From a virus (lineage: Duplodnaviria > Caudoviricetes), in the IMG/VR virus record IMGVR_UViG_3300032219_000218, positions 1-26,388 of that record: DNA of 26,388 nucleotides, one strand, 5' to 3'. The notes under the pieces are model-generated. The model did no database searches and had not been told where the DNA came from. It saw only the letters and a program-made list of their open reading frames with translations. Made by a program: the position numbers and the translations under genes. Positions 2,519-26,388 of the stretch are shown here, one piece after another (positions within the stretch are counted from its first letter, which is position 1; every line of letters begins with the position of its first letter).

Positions 2519-2616
2519 TATAATTAATAATTAGTAATTATATTATTATAATAGTAATATATAATATAATAATACTATAGTATTATAATACTACTAATTA
2601 GTAATTAGTAATTACT
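2519..2616. repeat. Very AT-rich low-complexity tract built of TAATTAG/TAGTAAT/TACTA words
   Basis: For example ctaattagtaattagtaattactag. About 100 nt with very few G/C. Confidence 0.7.
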
Positions 2617-2779
2617 AGAGGGGGTATCTAACAGAATACCGAAGGACGAAGTCCGAGGTCGTCTTTCCCGAGGACATAGTTAAGTGTTCCCCCGGTAGGG
2701 TGTTCAAGATCGCATTACCCAGTAATGCTACTAGACCCTATTGTAAATATTATTATAAATCTAGAAGAGTGCCCCTCTA
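2616..2779 (+). other. Multi-hairpin element closed by TAGAGGGG/CCCCTCTA
   Basis: Internal stems ggac-GAA-gtcc, gtctt/aggac, and tagggt/acccta enclosing gcattac/gtaatgc. Confidence 0.5.
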
Positions 2780-2852
2780 CTAGAATTAAAGAATGCTTAT
2801 TTCCCTCCCCCCTATCCGTGTGGGATAACTAGTGTATAAACCCAATGATAAC

Positions 2853-2865
2853 AATCAATAACTTA
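2853..2865 (+). promoter_or_regulatory. IHF consensus site
   Basis: AATCAATAACTTA matches WATCAANNNNTTR exactly. Confidence 0.55.
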
Positions 2866-2953
2866 CACAATAGTAATCATTGCATAATACACCCCTCTAT
2901 AACTCACGCTATGCTATCTAGAACGCACGATGTATTACATCTAATACCATAGC

Positions 2954-3662
2954 TATGCCTCGCTTTGCGTGCTCGGCATAAACCTATGACAACACCGTCC
3001 CGTTTCGCCGGGACATCACGACCAATCTGCCATTGGATGGCGTCAAGTTCCCAAACCTTTCAGCGGACAATCCTGTCCGTAACCCTACAGTGTAATTATA
3101 ATACTGCAATGAAAACTACACTGTCGTTAGTTTTAATTGCGATTATAATAAAATCCTTGATGTATAAGTCTGTCCTCGAACATAAACTCTAACTAAGTAA
3201 TTACTAATTCTGATTAGTATTTATTTGTTTTAGAGTAATCAACAAGCTTCTAAAACTCGCAACAGAAACGGTTGTAAGGTTCAATCAGAATTACTAATGA
3301 CATAAGTTAGAGCTATTATGTTATACGAGGAGTACGGTCTGCCCTAGCAGACCCAGACTTATGTTATATATATATGACTTAACCGCGGATTATATTGGAT
3401 AATAGAACTATTAAGACTGCAAGGAATTCTTGAAATTAATAAAAAGCATTACGATAGGTATCAATAACACACAAGAATACCTTTTGGGCTAAAGCCATTC
3501 AAGAACTAAATGACCCCGTAAATTCTTTACGCCAAACCCGCTCTGTTTATTTGCACGCGTTGCGTGCCCTTTATATGTGTAAACAATTTCATTTAGTTAT
3601 TGACTTCTTAATAGTTCAATTATCTGGCATATATCCTAAGGGTTAAGTCCTATATATACAAC
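2954..3662 (+). ncRNA. Candidate large structured RNA or structured leader
   Basis: Nested long-range stems: 3164-3172/3354-3362, 3173-3178/3326-3331, 3187-3194/3305-3312, 3205-3215/3283-3293, 3376-3384/3641-3649, 3405-3416/3606-3617. Several G-U pairs favour the plus strand. No credible ORF. Confidence 0.55.
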
Positions 3663-3696
3663 CCTTATCTTTTTAAAACCTTTCAAGGAGTATATT

Positions 3697-3870
3697 ATGT
3701 TCCACAATGCACATGTTTTAGATTATGAAGACCTCATGCTCTTCTGGAATACAGATGATATCAATAAAGCTATGGAGCTTGATGTAGGCTACTGGAATTA
3801 TTGGAAACAAGAAGTATTAATACACAAAGAAATAAAAGTAACTCCATTCTTAACTTTAGTAGGAGCATAA
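3697..3870 (+). CDS. 57-aa early hypothetical protein
   Basis: AAGGAG RBS. MFHNAHVLDYEDLMLFWNTDDINKAMELDVGYWNYWKQEV...LVGA. Not in the ORF track. Confidence 0.8.
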   Translation: MFHNAHVLDYEDLMLFWNTDDINKAMELDVGYWNYWKQEVLIHKEIKVTPFLTLVGA

Positions 3871-3871
3871 C

Positions 3872-4045
3872 ATGGACGACCCTAAACAGCTCTATCTTTT
3901 CAACTATATGGACCCTGATTATGATGTCAATTGGGACGATATGGAGTCAGCTGAGTATGATGAACTACTATCATCCTCTCAATTCTGTGCAGAATATGAT
4001 GCATATATCGATTCATTATCAGATACTGCAATCAATGATTTATAG
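3872..4045 (+). CDS. 57-aa extremely acidic early protein
   Basis: AGGAG RBS. MDDPKQLYLFNYMDPDYDVNWDDMESAEYDELLSSSQFCAEYDAYIDSLSDTAINDL has 16 D/E against 1 K. Not in the ORF track. Confidence 0.8.
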   Translation: MDDPKQLYLFNYMDPDYDVNWDDMESAEYDELLSSSQFCAEYDAYIDSLSDTAINDL

Positions 4046-4054
4046 TTTCATCAG

Positions 4055-4088
4055 AAAAGGCGTCCTCCAAGTGTGGGGACGCTTTTCC
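4055..4088 (+). terminator. Stem-loop, terminator or processing site
   Basis: aaaaggcgtcctcca-agtg-tggggacgctttt lies between early genes. The U tract is short. Confidence 0.5.
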
Positions 4089-4136
4089 TCGTAGTAAAAT
4101 TAGTTCACAATTAACTTAAACTTAAGGAGTATTCAC

Positions 4137-4565
4137 ATGGCTTTAACAATCACATTCACAGACGGTAAGTTCGATTTCACTCAGTTCAACGATATGTTAG
4201 CTGTTGTAAAACCAAGTGCCGGCACCAAAGTAGCAATCGCTCGTTCATTAATGAAAGATGTCCTCTCAAGTGATATGCGCTACAGAGCAATGCCTTTGAT
4301 TGAATTAGGTTATGCTTTAGAAGACCAGATTGAGACATACTCTAACGCTCGTAAGATATACACAACATGCAACATTGAAGCACGCACTAACAAGACCATT
4401 GCCAAAACATGGTCAGCTCAAGAGTTAGTTCAAGCTGCAAAGACAGCAGCTCATGTCAATGCTAATGCTTCGTTGAAAGCCGAGCAAACAGAAAGTAATC
4501 GCGGTCGCCCAGAGTTAACACCTGAGAATCAATCAACATCAGCAGACGCAGGTCGCGTAGCTTAA
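4137..4565 (+). CDS. Early hypothetical protein (142 aa)
   Basis: Strong TAAGGAG RBS, followed by a terminator. Confidence 0.85.
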   Translation: MALTITFTDGKFDFTQFNDMLAVVKPSAGTKVAIARSLMKDVLSSDMRYRAMPLIELGYALEDQIETYSNARKIYTTCNIEARTNKTIAKTWSAQELVQAAKTAAHVNANASLKAEQTESNRGRPELTPENQSTSADAGRVA

Positions 4566-4575
4566 CTACTATCAT

Positions 4576-4608
4576 AAGGCAGGGTTTCGACTCTGCCTTT
4601 CTTTTTTT
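4576..4608 (+). terminator. Rho-independent terminator
   Basis: AAGGCAGGGT-TTCG-ACTCTGCCTT followed by TCTTTTTTT. Confidence 0.9.
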
Positions 4609-4619
4609 AAGGATATCAT

Positions 4620-4802
4620 ATGTTAGATAAATTCTACAAGCTTAAAAACAAGCACACCAACGCTACTATCTTTTACACAGAACTCTCAGACTATCTATTC
4701 TGGAAGGGATGGCGTATAGAACGCGAAGCTAAGATATCCGAAGTTGACTATCTAGAGTTCTGTGCAATCGAACACGATATACAGCAAGAAATCTACGAGT
4801 AA
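4620..4802 (+). CDS. Hypothetical protein (60 aa)
   Basis: AAGGA RBS. Co-oriented with the early genes. Confidence 0.75.
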   Translation: MLDKFYKLKNKHTNATIFYTELSDYLFWKGWRIEREAKISEVDYLEFCAIEHDIQQEIYE

Positions 4803-4881
4803 TCTCGTAGTTTTTAATTCTATGTTCTGTTCGTTATCACTCACAGATTTATATCCAAATCTATTTTCTTTAACAAGAAAA

Positions 4882-4910
4882 TTGGATTGCTCATGTATGT
4901 ATGATATACT
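4882..4910 (+). promoter_or_regulatory. Probable sigma70 promoter
   Basis: TTGGAT, 17 nt spacer, TATACT with TGn extension. Overlaps one ACTACTATCAT copy. Confidence 0.55.
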
Positions 4911-5011
4911 ACTATCATTAGAGTGTTTTGACACTCTGTGTCAACGCCCCTATGGGGCGGGGTAAATCAGGGGAGTACTGTGTTACTTGGGCAAATTATA
5001 GGAATCTAATT

Positions 5012-5398
5012 ATGTCAGATATCAATTATGTCGAATCTCAAATTGGTTGTATGGCCTATGCTATTTATGCAGAAGCTAATACACAATCATTAGAAGCAAA
5101 GCATGGCGTTGGATATTTAATACTGAATCGTGTCAAATCTAAAAGATATGGTAAAGACATATGTGATGTGGTATACTCCAAAGGACAGTTCATTGGTATT
5201 AGTGATATGCTTAAACATAAATATCGTGAACCATCTACTGAAGACTTATTAAAAACTAAACTCATTGCATTAAATATCTATTATGGTAAAGTAGTAAATC
5301 CTGTCGGTCGTTCATTATACTTTCATGATGACTCAATTGACATGAAGCACTTGTGGGGTAGGAAAACTGTTAAAATTGACAATCTTGTATTTTATTAA
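5012..5398 (+). CDS. SleB/CwlJ-like cell wall hydrolase (Hydrolase_2 family)
   Basis: CMAYAIYAEA...VGYLILNRVKSKRYGKDICDVVYSKGQF...SLYFH...IDNLVFY. Likely start is the ATG at 5012; the track starts at 4928. Confidence 0.88.
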   Translation: MSDINYVESQIGCMAYAIYAEANTQSLEAKHGVGYLILNRVKSKRYGKDICDVVYSKGQFIGISDMLKHKYREPSTEDLLKTKLIALNIYYGKVVNPVGRSLYFHDDSIDMKHLWGRKTVKIDNLVFY

Positions 5399-5408
5399 GG
5401 GGAATAAT

Positions 5409-5597
5409 ATGGCAGATGATTTTGATAATCACTATGACATCACTGATGGTGATGGGCACCATGACCAAGAAGAAGCACACTTCTATTGGACTATTCAAGA
5501 GTTTCAAGACTGTATTGACAAATACGGTTGTGCATTTGTATTAAGTAAAATGAATGACAATATCAAACAACTTATAAAGGAAAAATTAGATGTGTAA
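5409..5597 (+). CDS. Small acidic hypothetical protein
   Basis: AAGGGG RBS before the ATG at 5409. MADDFDNHYDITDGDGHHDQEE... Confidence 0.75.
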   Translation: MADDFDNHYDITDGDGHHDQEEAHFYWTIQEFQDCIDKYGCAFVLSKMNDNIKQLIKEKLDV

Positions 5598-5745
5598 TCA
5601 TGAAGAAGACTTTCGTGGTATTGCAAAGTATAAACATAAATATACACTAGTTGATAAATACCTTGTAGGTATTGTTTTACTTGGCGTAACAATCTCTATT
5701 GTATTCATGAGTGTATGTTTGTATCAACTTATTCTAAGCCTATGA
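5590..5745 (+). CDS. 51-aa single-pass membrane protein
   Basis: MCNHEEDFRGIAKYKHKYTLVDKYLVGIVLLGVTISIVFMSVCLYQLILSL. AAAGGA RBS and a long hydrophobic C-terminal run. Not in the ORF track. Confidence 0.7.
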   Translation: MCNHEEDFRGIAKYKHKYTLVDKYLVGIVLLGVTISIVFMSVCLYQLILSL

Positions 5746-5776
5746 ATGCAGCACTGGGGGTGCCTGCATTCTAGGC
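5738..5776. promoter_or_regulatory. Long hairpin, copy 1 of a twin element
   Basis: gccta-t-gaatgcag-cac-tgggg-gtg-c-ctgcattc-taggc. Confidence 0.65.
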
Positions 5777-5805
5777 ACTGCTATTAATCATAAAGGAAAT
5801 CATAT

Positions 5806-7359
5806 ATGAAATCATACAGTTTTACTGAGTTTAATAATAGGTTTAATATGTTCGGATGGTTACATCCAGACATACGACAAACCTATTGGACTAAAGAAAT
5901 GAACGAATGGGATTATGAACAACAAGCAACTGTTCGTAAAACCTGTACACTATCTACAATTTGGTATAAAGATCAACGAGTATTACAATTCTATACCAAT
6001 GATGAAGCCAATGGTAACAGACGATTAAATGTACATAACTTTTATCGTGAAGCTGCTCATGAAACAGGCCTTGTAACAAGTGCAAGTTATAGAATCAATG
6101 CATCAACTATTATAGATGCGTTATATTACAAAGCTAATGAACCTGTATACTACAATCAAAATGGCACACTAAAGAAAGGTTTCTGGGGTGCATTGCGTAG
6201 ACGACTACGCTCACAAGCTATGCGTACTAGTTGGGTAACTAATCATATGTTGCAAACAGCAGTAAGAGTAGCAGAAGGTATTACACAAGGTATAACTGTT
6301 CAAGATTATTTTATTGATAAAGATATACCATCTTATGCATTCTATCAAGATGAGTTAACAACTGAGTATCATATCGAAGGTAGTCAACGACGCATAAGAC
6401 TTGGCTCTAGTCAATGGACTGAAATACATAAGTCTACTGATCCAAGGTTGTATGGTTATACATTCAATGAACGACATGACATATGGCTTACCTCTGAACA
6501 ATTCTATCATAATGGTGAGATATATAATCGTAGTGAAGTAGACATTGCTACATGTAACACATGTAATAACGAATCTGTTACAGATCTTATGATTGATGGC
6601 ACATGTTATCAATGTCTTGACTCAAGCTTTAAGATACATAACTATTCAACACGAGTAGAAGGTATACTTAAATTCAAAGCTACTAAGGTACGACCTAATA
6701 CTGTTTACCTTGGCTGTGAATTAGAATACGAAACTAAAAATCGTAATCGTGCACAACTTGCAGTAGGTAAACTAATGCATGGTCATGCACTTATGAAGTC
6801 AGACGGTTCTATTCGTAATGGCTTTGAGATTGTTACATGTCCAGCTACACTAGATATACATTTAGATATCTTTAAGAAATTCTACGACAACATACCACCA
6901 GATCTTAAGATAGAAAAGAATGTAGGTATGCATGTACACATCAGTCGGAAACCCTTGTCGCAGTTAACTCTTGGCAAGATGACTGAGTTTCTTAATCGTG
7001 CAGAAAATAAACTATTCATTGCATTCATAGCAGGTCGTACAGATAATCAGTATGCTCGTATGGATAGTGGACGAAATGTTACATATGCATGGCGTAACAA
7101 GAATGGTGGTGACAGATACAATGCACTCAATCTTAACAACAGTAACACAGTAGAAGTTAGATTGTTTGCTACACCAATGAACTACAAAGAGTTTGCATCA
7201 CGCTTACAATTTGTACAAGCATTGGTCGACTATTGTATGCCTGCTCAATCTAGTGAATCACTCAAGAAACAAACTCATTACGAAGCATTCATGGGTTGGT
7301 TATCTAATCGTAAGCGTATGTTCCCCGAACTAAGTTATCATTTAAAGGAGTTTGTATAA
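5806..7359 (+). CDS. Putative amidoligase (COOH-NH2 ligase, Amidoligase_2-like) with long N-terminal extension and CxxC pair
   Basis: YLGCELEYE, KSDGSIRNGFEIVTCP, GMHVHIS, RYNALN and TVEVRLF motifs. CNTC...CYQC precedes the ligase domain. Confidence 0.88.
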   Translation: MKSYSFTEFNNRFNMFGWLHPDIRQTYWTKEMNEWDYEQQATVRKTCTLSTIWYKDQRVLQFYTNDEANGNRRLNVHNFYREAAHETGLVTSASYRINASTIIDALYYKANEPVYYNQNGTLKKGFWGALRRRLRSQAMRTSWVTNHMLQTAVRVAEGITQGITVQDYFIDKDIPSYAFYQDELTTEYHIEGSQRRIRLGSSQWTEIHKSTDPRLYGYTFNERHDIWLTSEQFYHNGEIYNRSEVDIATCNTCNNESVTDLMIDGTCYQCLDSSFKIHNYSTRVEGILKFKATKVRPNTVYLGCELEYETKNRNRAQLAVGKLMHGHALMKSDGSIRNGFEIVTCPATLDIHLDIFKKFYDNIPPDLKIEKNVGMHVHISRKPLSQLTLGKMTEFLNRAENKLFIAFIAGRTDNQYARMDSGRNVTYAWRNKNGGDRYNALNLNNSNTVEVRLFATPMNYKEFASRLQFVQALVDYCMPAQSSESLKKQTHYEAFMGWLSNRKRMFPELSYHLKEFV

Positions 7360-8276
7360 TGTGTATTGCAATCTATAAACCAGAAGAAAAGATCATCAGT
7401 AAAGCAACACTAAAAGAATGTTATTCATCTAACCCAGATGGTGCAGGCTTTATGTTTTCTGATGACAAACAATTAAACATTCAGAAAGGTTTCTTTAACT
7501 TTGATTCCTTTTACAATGCATACAAACAACATCAAAACAAGAAAGTTGTTATTCATTTTAGGATTAAAACTCATGGTGAAATTAATGAAACAAACTGTCA
7601 CCCATTTGCTGTCAATAGCAGTTTGGCTTTTGTGCACAACGGTATTATTAGTGGCCTTGATGGTGATAAAGCTTTCTCTGACACTATCCACTTCAATGAA
7701 CAAATACTTCAACCGTTAGTAAACAAGTGGGGTAACCTAGCTTTATTCCAAGACCCTATGATTAATCTTCTTGAAACTCGTATTGGTTACAGCAAGCTTA
7801 TCTTCTTAGATAGACACGGCAACCACAAGATCATGAATGAACACAAGGGTGAATGGGATGATGGTGTATGGTATAGTAACAACAGTTACAAACCTTATGT
7901 TGCACCCGTTGTTACATCATGGAAGAATGATGTATATGATTATGGTAACTGGCGTAAACCTGTAGCTATTTCTAAACCTAAACCTAAAGTAGTAGCAATA
8001 GGTGCAATGGTAGAATTACTAGAAGATACAGCTGACCCTGCTACTCTTAAAGTATATGAAACAGGTGAGCTATGTGAGATTGTTGCAGTTAATAAAGATT
8101 TTACATGTGACCTAATGCATGATGACTACAAAGGTAAAAGTTCTTTTCTTTACAATGTTCCTTATCATTCTTTATCTTTTGTAGATGAGTTTGAAGATGA
8201 CACCATTGATCCAGTAGGTGTACCTGCATATCAAAACTATGCATCACCATCTTTACTAAAAGGTAAATCTAAATGA
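7359..8276 (+). CDS. Class II (Ntn) glutamine amidotransferase
   Basis: N-terminal nucleophile MC-, NPDGAG, HFRIKTHG, NCHPF, HNGII, SDT. Confidence 0.92.
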   Translation: MCIAIYKPEEKIISKATLKECYSSNPDGAGFMFSDDKQLNIQKGFFNFDSFYNAYKQHQNKKVVIHFRIKTHGEINETNCHPFAVNSSLAFVHNGIISGLDGDKAFSDTIHFNEQILQPLVNKWGNLALFQDPMINLLETRIGYSKLIFLDRHGNHKIMNEHKGEWDDGVWYSNNSYKPYVAPVVTSWKNDVYDYGNWRKPVAISKPKPKVVAIGAMVELLEDTADPATLKVYETGELCEIVAVNKDFTCDLMHDDYKGKSSFLYNVPYHSLSFVDEFEDDTIDPVGVPAYQNYASPSLLKGKSK

Positions 8277-9022
8277 GTCTTAAAATATTCCCTTACAAGT
8301 TAGGTAGTGTATCTGCTAAACGATTGGCTAGAACCCTTGGTACTCTAAGGGTTTCACCATCGTACAATGCTAAACGAAAAGATGTAATAGTTAACTGGGG
8401 CAATAGTACACCACCACATTTTCGTTGGATGGAGCAAGATTTAAATAAACCTCATGCTATTGCATTGGCATCTAATAAACTAGAAACTTTTAGAGAGTTT
8501 CGTAGCAACTCTTTTACTGATGTACCTGACTGGACTACTAACCATAGTGAAGCTCAACACTGGCTTGACTTAGGACTTAAAGTATACTGTCGTACAACAA
8601 CAAGAGGGCATAGTGGTAATGGTATAATTATATGTAATGATGGTGATAGACTTGCACATGCACCACTATACACATTACATAGTAAACATAAACACGAGTA
8701 TCGTGTCCATGTATTCCGTGGACAAGTAATAGATATTCAAATGAAGCGTAAGCGTAATGGTGCCCTAGGGGGCACAGGCATTCGTAACAAAGCAAATGGA
8801 TGGGTGTATGCCAGAGCAGAAATAGCCCCGCCCAAAGAGCTACTACTATCATCAATCAAAGCTGTTCAATTACTTAATCTCGACTTTGGTGCAGTAGACA
8901 TAGGACACAGAGTCATTGATAATAAATTCTTTGTATTCGAAGTTAATACTGCCCCAGGATTAGAAGGAACTACGCTTGACAAATATTCAAAAGCCATTTA
9001 TAATTACTATAGGAGTCTATAA
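8273..9022 (+). CDS. ATP-grasp ligase (phage RimK-like)
   Basis: GHSGNGI, EYRVHVF, LDFGAVDI, FEVNTAPGLEG. Confidence 0.9.
   Translation: MSLKIFPYKLGSVSAKRLARTLGTLRVSPSYNAKRKDVIVNWGNSTPPHFRWMEQDLNKPHAIALASNKLETFREFRSNSFTDVPDWTTNHSEAQHWLDLGLKVYCRTTTRGHSGNGIIICNDGDRLAHAPLYTLHSKHKHEYRVHVFRGQVIDIQMKRKRNGALGGTGIRNKANGWVYARAEIAPPKELLLSSIKAVQLLNLDFGAVDIGHRVIDNKFFVFEVNTAPGLEGTTLDKYSKAIYNYYRSL
8976..9004 (+). promoter_or_regulatory. Perfect sigma70 consensus promoter inside the 3' end of the ATP-grasp gene
   Basis: TTGACA (8976-8981), 17 nt spacer, TATAAT (8999-9004). An AGGAG RBS and the ATG at 9025 follow. Confidence 0.85.
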
Positions 9023-20351: not shown

Positions 20352-20710
20352 TATGTAGCCTGTGTTTGTGCTGTTAATATACCTTTAGTAAACGTCATAC
20401 TACCAGCAACACCTGCTAAAGTTACAGGTGCTGTTGTAATTGTAACAGATAATCCCGCTTCTAACGCATTATATTCATCAGCAGTTACATGATAATACTC
20501 AAGACCACTAGTAGCACCACCTTGTAATCCTTGTAAGTCATTGTGTCGTCTATTAACAATACTTGTTATATTAGAGGCATCAAATACAATGTTATCCCAA
20601 CGTACAATACCACCAGTATTAATGTTTTGTCCTAGACGAAAGAACCAATCACGCCATTCATGGGATTCAGCTATAGGTTGATTAGGTATAGGGAATATTA
20701 AAGTAGCCAT
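20351..20710 (-). CDS. Hypothetical protein, probably virion-associated
   Basis: TAATG-coupled on both sides within the late arm. EWRDWF and HNDLQGLQGG...YYH motifs. Confidence 0.65.
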   Translation of the reverse strand: MATLIFPIPNQPIAESHEWRDWFFRLGQNINTGGIVRWDNIVFDASNITSIVNRRHNDLQGLQGGATSGLEYYHVTADEYNALEAGLSVTITTAPVTLAGVAGSMTFTKGILTAQTQAT

Positions 20711-23700
20711 TAGAAACCTCTAATTTGTCTTTGTAAGTTACGTCTCAATGCATCTTTAGCTGCCTCACGTTTACGTTTCTCAGTAGAAACATATTGAGCA
20801 GCTGTTGGAGATTCAATATCAATCTGACGAGCAGCCATTGCTTGAACACCTTCACCTGATTTATCATTCTGAGCACGTAATGCTTGGCTTGCCATAGGTA
20901 GCTGTTGAGCAACATAACGAGATATATCAGAGGCTAGTGTTACAGGATCACTTTGTGGGTTATAAATAGATTGACCATTATACCAATTAGTATTCATACC
21001 AAGTTGTACTAGACCACTTAATGCTGGGTTCCATGTAAACACTGAATTCATAGCTGCAGCAGGGGATTTAGAACCTGCAGCTACATCTTCCATAGCATGT
21101 ATTAAATGGTAAGGACCAGCACGTCTAAACTTAGCTTTGTCATTATCAGTCATTGACTTAGCCATCATGTCCATTAATGGGTACACAACTGCTAGAGCAA
21201 CAGCTACAGCTGCTGCCGAATCTATACCTTGTTTAAATTCTTTTACACCCTCAGCACCTTTTCTAATGGCACCAATCTCACGTACCATGTTAACCAAAGA
21301 CTTAACCATACCATAGTGGTAACGACTAAACACTGAGATGTTAGGGTTTTGCATAACATAACTTAAACCTCTACCTACATTCTCCCCAACAACCTTTTCA
21401 CCAATCATTGATGGAAGTCTATAGTTAGGCATGTGCTTCTCTGCATAAAATATAGCTTCAGGGTGTGACAATCCTTTAGTTTCCATTATCTCTCTAAGAT
21501 ATTGCATATACATAATATCACGAGTAATCCACATAGCTCTATTAGATTGTTTAGAAATACCATTGTATAGTTGTTTAAGAGATACACCCATGTCATTAGC
21601 TAATTCTTTAAACTCACCAGTCTTAGAGAATTCATTTAAACCTTTACCAAATAAAGCTTCTTGAAAAGCTGTGGCTCTTGTACCAGGTGATAATAAAGAA
21701 CCACCAAGTCTAATAGTTTCTTCATAAAAATGTGATAGGTTAACTACATCATCTATAGCTAGTTTACCATGTTTATGAAACCTTGCAATACCACCAGGAG
21801 TTACCCAACCAGATAGACCACGGGCATTATACAAGTGGAATGCTTCGTTTAACATGTGGGCTATAGGGTTAACCATCATGTTCTTAACAATGATGTTAGT
21901 TAAATTAGTTAACACTGTAGGATCCCATACCCTAGCAAAATCATTAATAATGTTAGCTACGCGAGTAGGGAACATGTAACCAGCTAATGGTGGGTATTTC
22001 TGTACGTTCTTAGGTACTATGTAACCTTCAGGAACTTCTTGTAGTTTACCATCTACATGAGTAGGTAAAGCAATATCTTTCATCATAGGAGATGACATAA
22101 GGTTTTTAAGGAATAAATCTTGACGTACTTCCTCACGAACTTCTTCCATCTTTTTAAGTAATACAGCTAAAGAATTTCTATTATAAGTTATAGGTGCATG
22201 TTCTTCAAGTTCTTTAATAGAACCTTGAGATAAATGACCTCCAAAGAATGTATCACCTTCATGTAACATCCTATCACGTTCTGGCATACTACCTAGTAAC
22301 TTAGCTTTTTGACCTTCCCATTTAAATATCTTACCATCTTTAGCTATTTGAACTACAGTTCTATCTCCATTACGTTCTTTAATAACCCAGAATGAACGAG
22401 TCTTAGAAGCACTAGATAGTTTACCTAAGTCAGGGTCAAAGCCCCCTTCTAGTTTACCACCTAGTTCTGCAAAAGTATTCTTAATTTTACCAAAGAAATT
22501 AGGGTTTTCATAAGTACCATTTTCTTGCATAACTTTAATTTGTTCACGAGTTAATGGGTTCATCATTCTATTAAAAAAGAATTTACCATCTCTCATTTCA
22601 CCTAGTTGATTAGCAAGGTCAGGGTTAATATTCTTAAGATACTCATACCCTTTAGTAAGTTCAGCAATTAAAGGTGCATAATATTTATCATATATAATTT
22701 GTTCATCAGGTGCAAGAGGTGTAGGAGTTTCAATTTGTTTATTAAGTTTATCACGTTCAGCTTTTAATATAGTTTGTTTTTCAGGTAATTCAAATTCAAG
22801 TTCTTCCCACTTATCTCTTAGATCTCTATATGGTCTATTAATTCTAAAAACAATATCATCATAAAAGTCTTGTTCTTCTTTTGTAAGTGTTTCTTTTCTA
22901 GATTGCTTTCCTAAAATCTCTTCATATTTATTACGTTTAGGAGTACCAAATTGAAAGTCATTAGTTTCATATATGTCTTTAGCTCGAGCTTTTAAGCTAT
23001 CAATAGCTTCTTTTAAACCTTTAAGGGTAGAATCAATATCAACTACACTAGCATTAAGTTCATCAGAAAACTTATTAATACCTTCTAAATGCAATCTAAT
23101 ATTGTTTTGCATTTCAGGGGTTAATTTATCATTAGTAATAGCTAATTCATAAATCTTAGCAGATCTAATCTCATCAACCATCTTAGCATTAGCTGAGATA
23201 AATGCACCATCTGCTAATTCTTTTTCATTAGTAGGGGTAGGGGGTAATCCTAAATTATCCAGGTTATAGAATGGATTAATAGCAGCCTGTTCCATAGCAG
23301 TATTGTTTAGATAAGACTGATATGAATTGTCTTTAACTCTTAAATTTGATTCTCCACCTTTTCTAGTAAAGTCACCAAACTTTGGGTCTTTAGATAAGTT
23401 TTGATGTGTAAGATCTATAAGTTGATCTAATGCTGTTTCAGTCTTTTCTTTACCATTTCCAAGGAAGTCTTTAATGATGTCTTTAAACTCTTGCCATGCA
23501 CTAGGAGCTTTAGCATCTAATAGTGGGGGTCTTTCACTCATCCATCTTTGAAATCTATTACTAGCAAAAGCTTCAGAAATCATTTCTCTAGTAGATTCTA
23601 AACCATACATAGACTTTTCAGTTTGGCTTTCCCACAACTCATCTTTGCTTGCCGTAGCTTTAAGCTTTTCAAAGAAATCATCCATTTGTTTAGCAAATAC

Positions 23701-26388
23701 AGGATCTTTATCCATAGCATTAAGAGTTGCTGAATGCAACACTTCATGACCAAAGGTAAGTAAATCAGCATGTTTATTAAGATGTAAACTACCTTCATCC
23801 CACACCCCTTCACTTACTTTTTTTCTATTATAAAAGCCAGGGATAAGATAACCTTCTTTATCCATTATTTCTTTAGTAGGATTAAGTACTAATGGTATTT
23901 CACTAATATATTTATTAGATCTAAGAAGTCTAAATAAAGCTTTTTCAATAGGGTTACCTAAGTTACCTTCTACTAAACGATCTAAAGCCTCACCAATAGT
24001 TTTAGCACCAGTTAATACATTGTGTGTATCTTCACTAGATAAACGTTCTTTACTAGAAAGTTGAGCTTCAGGGGGTTCATTAGTTTTTACCTCTTTAAGT
24101 GTTGCTTCTTTACTATTAATTTCTTTTAATATATCAGCTTTTTCTTGAGGATTTGTTTCTGATTGATGTAATGTTTTTAATCCATTAATTTCAGATTGAA
24201 GGTCTTCAACAGTATTATAATATTGTTGCCTTCTAGTAAATGACTCTTGTTCAGCTGCCGCAAAAGATGCTTGATTTTTATAATCAAAGGCAGACTGTGG
24301 TTCTTGATGTTCAGTTTTAACTCTTTGAAGTTTAAAGTCTAGGTATGATTGAAAGTCTTTAAATGCAGTTTCAGGTAAATTGTATAGTTTAGTCCATTCT
24401 TTATTAGCAAACTCACTGGCTAGCCCATCATAGTTTACTTCAATAGTTGGTTTACCTTTAGTTTCATGTATTCTAATATTATCTTTATCAGTATTACGAG
24501 TTTGTTGATGTGTGTCTACTTCAGTCTCAGCAATACCATGACGAGTAGCATAGTCAATCTTAGACTCTCTACGTAAATCTACAATTGGGATATCATCTAC
24601 TTGTTTAGGTATAAAGAACTCAGAGCCTCTAATCCTACTAATAATATCTTCTACTTTTTCTTTTGTTTTAAAGTTTACATTTTCAAATGATACGGCTTTA
24701 CCAAGACGAGTCTTGTCGCCACTTACTAATGGCATCATAAAACCACTAATAAGAATACGTGCTGGATCAAACTCACCTTGTACTGCTTGTGTTATACCTT
24801 CAATACCTACACCAAAACCTGTTGCAACTAAAGGTTCAGACCATGTTTTAAGTGACTTAAGTTTAGAAGCATCACCAGCTTTATATAAGTTATAAGCTTC
24901 ACCTATCTCTTTACGAGCTGCTGTAGATAAGCCATAACCACCATATAAACCAAAAGGTAAGAACCCACCTACCATAGCTGCTGTAGGGTGTTGTGCTTCA
25001 CCTTGTTCTAGGGTTTTGTTAACAGCTTCTGGAAGTAAGTTCTTTTGTACAGCACTAGCACCAGCATGCCCTGCTACAAAGGTACCAATGCGAGCTGCAA
25101 GATTAACAAGTAAAGGTACTACTGCTAAGGAAGCACCTCCTGTTGAAGGAGCTAGAGCAGCACCCACAATCTCTGATACTCCAAAGCCAATACCAGTAGG
25201 TATAACTTCTTTTAAAGCTGTTTGACCTAGTACTCTTAGAGCACTTTGTTCTTTGACTGGTTCTGCTGGTTTAGCCTCAGGTGCAGGAGTTTGTTGTTTA
25301 GGTATATTACTATAAATAGAAGACATATCATTGTAATATTGTTTAGCTAAGTCTTTTTGATTACTAGAAACTAAACCCTGTACAACCTGATCATTAAACT
25401 CTTTTGAAGGTAACCCTTTATTAGTTAGCATGCTAGATATATTATTGTAATAGTCTTTAGCTAAACCATGTTGTTTATTTTGTACTAATACTTCAACAAT
25501 TTTGTCATTAAAGTCAGTATTAAATGGTGTTTGAGGTGTTTGTTTAGGGCTTTGAGTACCCTTAAGAGTTTGTAAAACCTGTTGAGACATTGATAAAGGT
25601 ACATCAGGGTTTAATTGTTGAGGTGGGGGTTGAGTTCCATTAAGAGTAGATGAAACTTGTTGTACCATAGATTGTGGTACATCACTAGCTACATTAGGGT
25701 TTGTATTAGATGCTACTTGTATAGGTGGAGTATTAGCAAACACAGAGGATGCTTGTTGTTGCCCTTGAGGAGCATACATTTTTTCTTGATCTTGATGGAG
25801 GGATTGAGCATAAGTGTTAGCAGCATTAACAGTTTTAAATTTACCTAAGTGTTGACCAGATGATTGATAAGATTTAATAGCTTCATCATCAGACATAATA
25901 CGACCATCATCAGACACTGTAGGAATAAGTACTTCATTCTTACCATCATTAAAAGACATGCTACGAACTGTACTTATAGAACCATCTTTATTTTTTACAA
26001 CAGGCCTTTTAGTAAGATCAATGTTACCTTGTTCTACACTATTGTTAGCAAAGTTCTTTACAGAATTAGTTTCAGTAGGTGTAGTAAATGCTAGTTGATT
26101 TTGGAATCTACGGTTTTGAATACCTTGATTAAACTCACCATCTACTTTATTGTATTCTGGAAGTTTAGCAGCAATTTCATCAGTAGAACGTTTACCATTA
26201 TCAGTAAGAGCTAAGAAGTTCTTTTGACCAGTGTTATAATGAAAGTCAACTAAACTATTAACTTGTGAGTCATTCCAATCATAACCTTTAACTTTAGCAA
26301 AGTTACGTACAAACTTCTCACGAGTGTCAATATCTTTAAGTAAACGTTGTTCTGCTACTTTTTTAGATATAACTTCATCAGGACCAGA
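20710..26388 (-). CDS. Giant internal virion/ejection protein (>=1892 aa, 5' end outside the window)
   Basis: The frame stays open for 143 codons upstream of the track start (25959) to the edge. That part has a GH24 lysozyme-like segment ([13 protein letters not shown]...[17 protein letters not shown]). HEVLH zincin motif at 23734-23748. Gly/Ala-rich hydrophobic segments. Confidence 0.8.

Follow-up and report, generated by a model that had tools for sequence, protein, structure and literature searches.

What is the large folded region that lies ahead of the first early genes in this phage, and is it built of RNA or of DNA? The window, which is the whole 26,388-nt stretch that we analyzed, is part of a phage genome and has two convergent arms. 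A terS-like gene and a terL-like ORF, the latter recognized by eye through its ATPase motif, both run leftward; the rightward arm carries small early genes, an amidoligase-like cluster, a primase, a helicase, a split DNA polymerase, and a reductase. The nearest cultured relatives are the Methylophilales phages MEP401 and MEP402 (helicase identity of 62-63%, similar gene order), and the window phage is a MEP401/402-like member of the Zobellviridae. Near-identical DNA is present in freshwater runs. Among the prokaryote genome contigs that we searched, there were no relatives of terS, and five distant helicases in metagenome bins indicated no host.

Two other proteins of this phage deserve mention. 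An early protein family without a Pfam or PHROG match (window 4137-4565) ranges from freshwater relatives to MEP401, and its divergent members retain a C-terminal S-x-D-A-G motif. The 1749-aa late protein (window 20710-25959) has an HExxH motif and resembles LPD38-type internal core proteins; it had no match in PDB.

The initial annotation described two adjacent folded domains in this region and proposed a plus-strand noncoding RNA of no known family. A selected fold without an Rfam family is indeed what we found, but the assignment to plus-strand RNA was poorly supported: the folding molecule is likely the minus (template) strand of the DNA. Our preferred explanation, to which we give a probability of roughly 45%, is that the cassette is a Frpo-like hairpin promoter for sigma70 polymerase on single-stranded template DNA.

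A maintained fold ahead of the early genes

The folded region and its surroundings comprise the following features, in window coordinates.

2946-3093, unstranded: a further hairpin module that can be swapped; L058 has 96% identity to it over 2991-3092
3095-3149, unstranded: domain 0, a covarying hairpin that the initial annotation overlooked (7 of 23 pairs covary in 3 sequences)
3156-3680, unstranded: exchangeable cassette with domains 1 and 2, 97.1% identical in L039/L047, which have unrelated DNA on the terS side
3164-3362, minus strand (from the leader families): domain 1, a three-way junction plus a long arm; putative accessory fold
Helices of domain 1: 3164-3172/3354-3362, 3173-3178/3326-3331, 3187-3194/3305-3312, 3205-3215/3283-3293, 3227-3234/3249-3256, 3259-3263/3271-3275, and 3336-3342/3347-3353
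3363-3662, minus strand: domain 2, a long interrupted helix plus a four-way junction; predicted hairpin promoter
Helices of domain 2: 3376-3384/3641-3649, 3395-3403/3619-3627, and 3405-3416/3606-3617
3685-3870, plus strand: RBS and first early ORF (57 aa), without a family match

This fold is real and has been maintained during evolution. Both strands fold far better than shuffled controls, with z scores of about -9 each: the plus strand reaches -150.1 kcal/mol (z = -8.9) and the minus strand reaches -160.5 kcal/mol (z = -9.9), and 0 of 100 shuffles were as low on either strand. Folded as DNA, domain 2 has z = -6.6 on the minus strand and -6.7 on the plus strand. Homologs covary in both domains. 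Both sides had changed in 15 of 69 pairs in domain 1 (reached by 0 of 500 shuffles) and in 18 of 98 pairs in domain 2 (2 of 500 shuffles), and slid controls were all far below the true alignment; each domain was represented by 8 sequences that are related to each other, so these counts are not independent.

The helices that had been named in the two domains are present where they were claimed, with one exception. TGAAATT/AATTTCA is missing from the best fold, and its 5' arm is altered in L039; the conserved helix in that part of domain 2 is 3499-3513/3589-3603. Domain 2 was said to stop about 25 nt short of the first RBS; the distance to this RBS, at 3685, is 22 nt. The structured region also reaches upstream of domain 1, beyond the limits first drawn, and 2946-3162 folds with z = -4.3. 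The ORF at 2965-3192, which has no PHROG match, was not counted as a gene.

No Rfam family was recognized by the initial annotation, and our search agrees. At the gathering score, there were no Rfam matches (6S, ROOL, GOLLD, or others) in the window or in 12 related loci; an E-value threshold gave no credible match either, and the best subthreshold match scored 23 bits, as against 60. No tRNA or tmRNA was found. A shortened core of domain 1 lies ahead of the early genes in MEP402 and L111, as judged by eye (our model R1 gave E = 0.36 only), and a search of 50 sources with model R1 found no new distant domain 1. Plus-strand loops that are A/C-rich and end in GC (G/T-rich when read on the opposite strand) recur at 3237-3248, 3438-3446, and 3528-3540 and in many loci, and they are common to otherwise unrelated modules, such as those of L006/L008 and L040/L043.

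Folded leaders as exchangeable modules

Related phages, to judge from their sequences, exchange the folded cassette as a unit. The left edge at 3156 is joined to a different flank in DNA runs X2, X3, and X5 and in RNA run X18; pieces of the cassette were present in all four further DNA runs, three of which share the left edge. Among 34 loci with a related terS-like gene, just L004 contains part of the cassette. In L001-L003, whose terS-like protein is 99% identical, about 720 nt is replaced by 250-370 nt of other sequence. The modules at this position in sister phages differ in sequence and are also folded. BLAST of the intergenic region against phage records gave no match, and against plasmids it gave nothing beyond one 35-nt match, in 4 records. 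A 27-nt flank pattern had 0 matches in metagenome contigs, and we discarded chance pattern matches in L041 (1 of 4), L042 (1 of 6), and L129-L132 (4 of 5; the fifth is the L111 contig).

Leaders, as we term the sequences ahead of the first early genes, fall into 18 sequence groups, with sub-modules shared between groups. With leader bounds drawn by hand and some modules common to several leaders, the minus-strand fold has z <= -3.6 in 18 of 20 representatives, including MEP401 and MEP402. Contigs that duplicate each other entered the counts a single time (L039 = L047, L044 = L045, L046 = L061, and L004 = L038). What is conserved in the leaders is position and foldedness, without conservation of sequence. 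We rejected the idea that all Zobellviridae have such a fold: the leader of ICBM1 is unstructured (z = -1.6 to 0.6), the Alcaligenes phage has a canonical promoter, and L048 and L092 lack a fold.

Several leaders have features of their own. In a marine leader (L123:2270-2822), the architecture is like that of domain 2, the side hairpin of domain 1 is inverted, and there is no GC skew. The leaders of L017, L018, L021, and L022 (oriented, 700-975 upstream of terS) form a rod without TTGAC; they have a 3' hairpin with a GNAA loop and a competing long-range pairing, and because both pairings covary, a two-state switch is suggested. In MEP402 (L050:1-310), two annotated genes, gp01 and gp02, lie across the folded leader and are unlikely to be real genes.

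Could such a hypervariable and mosaic region have acquired its folds as a neutral by-product of template switching or inversions, if this genome end is prone to recombination? The covarying changes are mainly from one Watson-Crick pair to another, which copying from arm to arm could produce. However, this would not account for the branched junctions, the conserved bubbles, the strand-biased loops, or the strong folding of 18 of 20 leaders despite their differing sequences, and we consider a neutral origin very improbable.

Which strand folds, and as which molecule

The plus strand had been chosen initially from the consistent nesting and from G-U rather than A-C pairs. This choice is not supported: the two strands fold to an equal degree, and homologs do not keep the G-U pairs. 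In particular, the three G-U pairs of domain 2 (alignment columns 36 to 38) are U-G in 3, U-G in 2, and G-U in 4 of 8 homologs.

Across the family, loop and mismatch signatures favor the minus strand and DNA. On stems of at least 4 pairs, the minus strand of the leaders has seven distinct C(GNA)G triloops and the plus strand has zero (0.5 and 0.4 in shuffles); if short stems are included, the counts are 23 and 2. According to passages of PMC13037366, DNA mini-hairpins of the GNA and GNNA types have extraordinary stability, and the GNNA type is much less stable as RNA. The RNA tetraloop cUUCGg was not found in 34-43 leaders, and the downstream terminator-type hairpins of the same phages provide an internal control, with four cUUCGg on the plus strand and none on the minus strand. 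Three further measures, which are linked rather than independent, point the same way. First, the 1x1 mismatches of the leaders, read on the plus strand, are A-C in 13 cases and G-T in 2 (P = 0.007), or 9 and 0 with DNA parameters, so that wobbles are favored on the minus strand. Second, C exceeds G on the plus strand in 41 of 43 leaders. Third, the DNA energy was lower for the minus strand in 19 of 20 leaders; its RNA energy was likewise lower in all 13 domain comparisons.

Within the window's own cassette, these signatures point to the minus strand weakly: it contains 0 GNA triloops, its mismatch bias is not significant (A-C 2, G-T 0), and as DNA it folds equally on both strands. The L017 group has its GNNA/GNRA loops on the plus strand.

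These results bear on the view of the initial annotation, a plus-strand leader RNA or noncoding RNA (a decoy or an RNase III substrate, to which an antiterminator may be added); it would be transcribed from an upstream promoter. Such an RNA would explain the strong covarying fold, and a forward promoter is available at 2489-2517 in the window, L004, L044, and L055. It would also fit with the terminator-like hairpins between early genes, with the A/C-rich plus-strand loops, with the plus-strand GNRA loops of the L017 group, and with two short pieces in RNA run X18. These 151-nt pieces (3156-3280 and 3307-3452) were found in one of three RNA runs at a depth of 2-3; the contigs do not give the strand, and the pieces may be DNA carry-over. 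In RNA runs X19 and X20, 3110-3676 had no coverage, which does not count as evidence, since their phages may carry other modules. In a plus-strand leader RNA, G-U pairs should be conserved and the sense strand should carry RNA tetraloops, but we found neither: there are just 1-6 G-U pairs per 57-110 pairs on either strand, the leaders lack cUUCGg, and the polarity of the family is minus. Furthermore, L039 and L047 carry the cassette but have no forward consensus promoter in the 900 nt upstream of domain 1. We consider a plus-strand RNA to be unlikely.

The strand bias would also fit with the wobble pairs of a minus-strand RNA, which could be an antisense transcript or could act like 6S RNA, as a decoy for the host's RNA polymerase. 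6S RNA has a duplex-bubble-duplex architecture, which this fold resembles. Leftward consensus promoters that could produce such a transcript are present at 3930-3903 in the window and at position 169 in MEP402. However, the promoter at 3930 lies inside a coding frame and is absent from L039, L040, L044, L047, and L055 (L004 ends before it). Also, a gene-oriented TTGAC would be superfluous in a 6S-like RNA, there was no Rfam match, and the GNA triloop is a signature of DNA; passages of PMC13037366 describe a much lower stability of the GNNA counterpart in RNA. This makes a minus-strand RNA quite improbable.

A candidate promoter near the putative left end, and its relatives

If the minus strand folds as DNA, then what is it for? 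Four features bear on this question.

2803-2865, plus strand: C-tract (2803-2812) and a site that we take to be an IHF-consensus site (2853-2865), conserved in most freshwater relatives
3389-3394, minus strand: TATAAT in the far arm, 22 nt rather than 17 nt from the partner of the -35; homologs have TACAAT, TAAAAT, TATGAT, or CATGAT
3600-3605, plus strand: putative -35 hexamer TTGACT, which lies in the gene-side arm and pairs with 3497-3502 in the fold
3623-3628, plus strand: -10 position, with the nonconsensus TCTGGC; open as a bubble when the minus strand folds, closed by G-T wobbles when the plus strand folds

In 12 of 19 leader families, as against 1.36 expected, TTGAC is found 45-125 nt ahead of the first RBS; the reverse motif GTCAA is found in this interval in 1 of 19. 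Several of the seven families that lack TTGAC are strongly folded. In L055 (a variant of domain 2, 17 nt), L012, and L092, a consensus-like -10 follows the motif after 16-17 nt, which argues that the motif is a -35; in 19 of 22 loci, a consensus-like -10 is missing. The three G-U pairs discussed above coincide with the -10 position of the promoter-like element. In predicted folds, the -35 and the spacer are paired at 0.77-0.80. Across 14 subfamilies folded as minus-strand DNA, pairing is lowest at positions -12 to -7, at 0.54 (P = 0.0005; counting domain 2 a single time gives 0.002); we had spotted this bubble by eye prior to the statistical test. The G of TTGAC is often mismatched (P = 0.002-0.02, minus-strand DNA folds). 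The bubble is present in plus-strand folds too, and it could simply block a divergent promoter.

In MEP402 and L111, a -10 occurs on the inverted copy only, at 16 nt, which is a Frpo-like arrangement. A general -10 on the inverted arm was not supported, as matches did not exceed the background of 0.24; the script did not cross the junction in L040, L043, L057, and L061, and we read the hexamers there separately.

Consensus promoters serve the middle genes of these phages. For the early genes, we found no consensus promoter in the window from 2524 to 8895, nor one ahead of gene 1 in MEP401/402. Terminator-like hairpins lie between the first early genes, at 4046-4087, 4576-4609, and 4793-4818; as no consensus promoter follows them, read-through or antitermination would be needed.

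Under the hairpin promoter explanation, the minus strand near the putative left end would become single-stranded and fold, and domain 2 would act as a promoter for the host's sigma70 polymerase. The far arm of the folded strand would substitute for the nontemplate strand, sigma region 4 would contact the duplex -35, and the mismatch bubble would take the place of -10 melting. Bubble templates relax the requirement for a -10. Transcription is predicted to start near 3635-3638, and one RNA contig starts at the equivalent of about 3658, or about 20 nt past the predicted start, which is a weak hint from a single contig. The promoter would have little or no activity in ordinary duplex DNA, so that it would act as a switch that automatically confines itself to the early phase. 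The role of domains 1 and 0 would be to hold the exposed strand in a folded, nuclease-resistant form.

The single strand might arise from an unfilled lagging-strand tail or a packaged gap, from the loss of a nicked top strand, or from end resection; the polarity would fit an unfilled lagging-strand tail. Phage tf, which has a similar architecture, has nicks in the top strand and a 3'-protruding left end, according to excerpts of PMC3517423. Here, the tf nick motif is absent, the Chi motif of E. coli is absent or not enriched, and no shared nick motif was found. As to the position of the left end, the C-tract at 2803 and the IHF-consensus site at 2853 may mark the start of a terminal repeat, in which case the folded cassette would sit just before the first early gene. 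Cobaviruses, which are also Zobellviridae, have direct terminal repeats of 159-173 bp with a G+C-rich 5' part, as given in passages of PMC6775973, and the mapped repeat of ICBM1 has a C-tract about 20 nt from the repeat end. For MEP401 and MEP402, the main text of PMC10580990 does not contain the words "promoter," "termini," "terminal repeat," or "non-coding."

In its broadest form, the scenario is that the genome of MEP401-like double-stranded DNA phages has, at its left end, several hundred single-stranded bases of template strand, whether delivered that way or quickly created. This would provide a pre-melted sigma70 promoter and a protein-free early switch, and the interchangeable folds would be a diversifying arsenal against the host's surveillance of DNA ends. 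We view this broad scenario as doubtful.

Sequences to the left of the cassette suggest a candidate transcription-activated origin at 2426-2680. This segment has back-to-back consensus promoters (2454-2426 on the minus strand and 2489-2517 on the plus strand), beside which lie an AT-only tract and a conserved GTC/CCGAGGAC motif. The unit of promoter plus AT tract is inverted in L028, L039, L040, and MEP401/402. Because the promoter at 2489 precedes the AT tract and is flipped in L039/L040/L047, where it points away from the early genes, it is more likely to be an origin promoter. Repeats of TATCCACA, presumably a DnaA-box-like sequence, are found in L014, L025, L028, L092, and L117. Another motif, GTCGGTCA, is repeated on the sense strand in marine relatives (L049:366 and 11673; L110, L115, L120, L122, and L123) and is absent from the window; it is possibly a phage promoter or a nick site.

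The folded minus strand might instead serve replication or packaging, by protecting an unfilled 3' tail at the left end or by priming in the manner of sso, ssi, or G4 origins; an ordinary promoter, weak or dependent on an activator, would then lie within it. The polarity evidence is the same as for a hairpin promoter, and an origin-like promoter, an AT tract, and a GTC-rich motif adjoin the cassette. On the minus strand, TTGAC contains GTC, which is the T7 primase triplet, and its C is the mismatched base. Priming sites are marked by GNA mini-hairpins, according to passages of PMC13037366. However, a role in replication or packaging would leave three things unexplained: that TTGAC stands at a fixed distance from the first RBS, that a bubble coincides with the -10 position, and that L055, L012, and L092 have a canonical -10. 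We consider such a role unlikely.

If the hairpin promoter explanation is correct, it implies an unrecognized genome state or entry step in a tailed double-stranded DNA phage, and it offers a possible function for the enigmatic nicks or overhangs of some podoviruses. The idea is directly testable, as MEP401 and MEP402 are in culture and have folded leaders. Even if the fold acts as an RNA, abundant aquatic phages have family-wide folded modules that are fixed in position, unrelated in sequence, and missing from Rfam.

Known systems share some of these traits. T7-like phages have early leaders that are processed by RNase III, and ROOL and GOLLD are large noncoding RNAs of phages; both resemble the leaders studied here in having long helices upstream of early genes. 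Unlike them, these leaders lack Rfam matches, RNA-type loops, and, in some carriers, an upstream promoter. The cultured phages MEP401 and MEP402 have folded leaders too; their lineage within the Zobellviridae has OM43 hosts, as described in parts of PMC10580990, whereas the window phage is from freshwater.

The promoters of the N4 virion RNA polymerase are hairpins of template DNA with GNA triloops at the early end of a double-stranded DNA podovirus (passages of PMC4496689 and PMC13037366), and they are exposed with the help of gyrase and SSB (PMC4496689, in part). However, the N4 hairpins are short (5-bp stem) and are read by a phage enzyme, as these sources describe, while the folds here span 150-700 nt and have a host-type -35. 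The leaders of the family contain seven template-strand GNA triloops, and the window's leader contains none. There is no sign of an RNA polymerase in the window, which covers part of the genome, or in the annotations of MEP401/402.

Host-polymerase promoters on single-stranded DNA have been described for conjugative plasmids, whose DNA arrives single-stranded. In the leading regions of these plasmids, Frpo/ssi elements are likewise noncoding stem-loops with a duplex -35 ahead of the first-expressed genes, and they act on the template strand and shut off in duplex DNA (as described in portions of PMC9849209 and PMC11541004); these last two properties are predicted for the window fold. The predicted folds do place a duplex -35 in a stem-loop upstream of the first genes, but a canonical -10 at normal spacing is lacking, with 22 nt in the window and 16 nt in MEP402 and L111 only. 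Homology to plasmids is limited to the 35-nt match in 4 records, and the context is that of a phage rather than a conjugative leading region. Also, this is a tailed double-stranded DNA phage with no known single-stranded entry, the bubble mostly replaces the -10, the folds are branched, and the sequences are interchangeable. Our searches of the open-access literature turned up no account of leaders like these in this group of phages, and none of a sigma70 promoter on single-stranded DNA in a tailed double-stranded DNA phage. Overall, the window fold lies outside Frpo and every Rfam family, and probably outside the N4 promoters: the folded leader is a real and undescribed feature, and it may, at somewhat less than even odds, be a promoter of the single-stranded kind.
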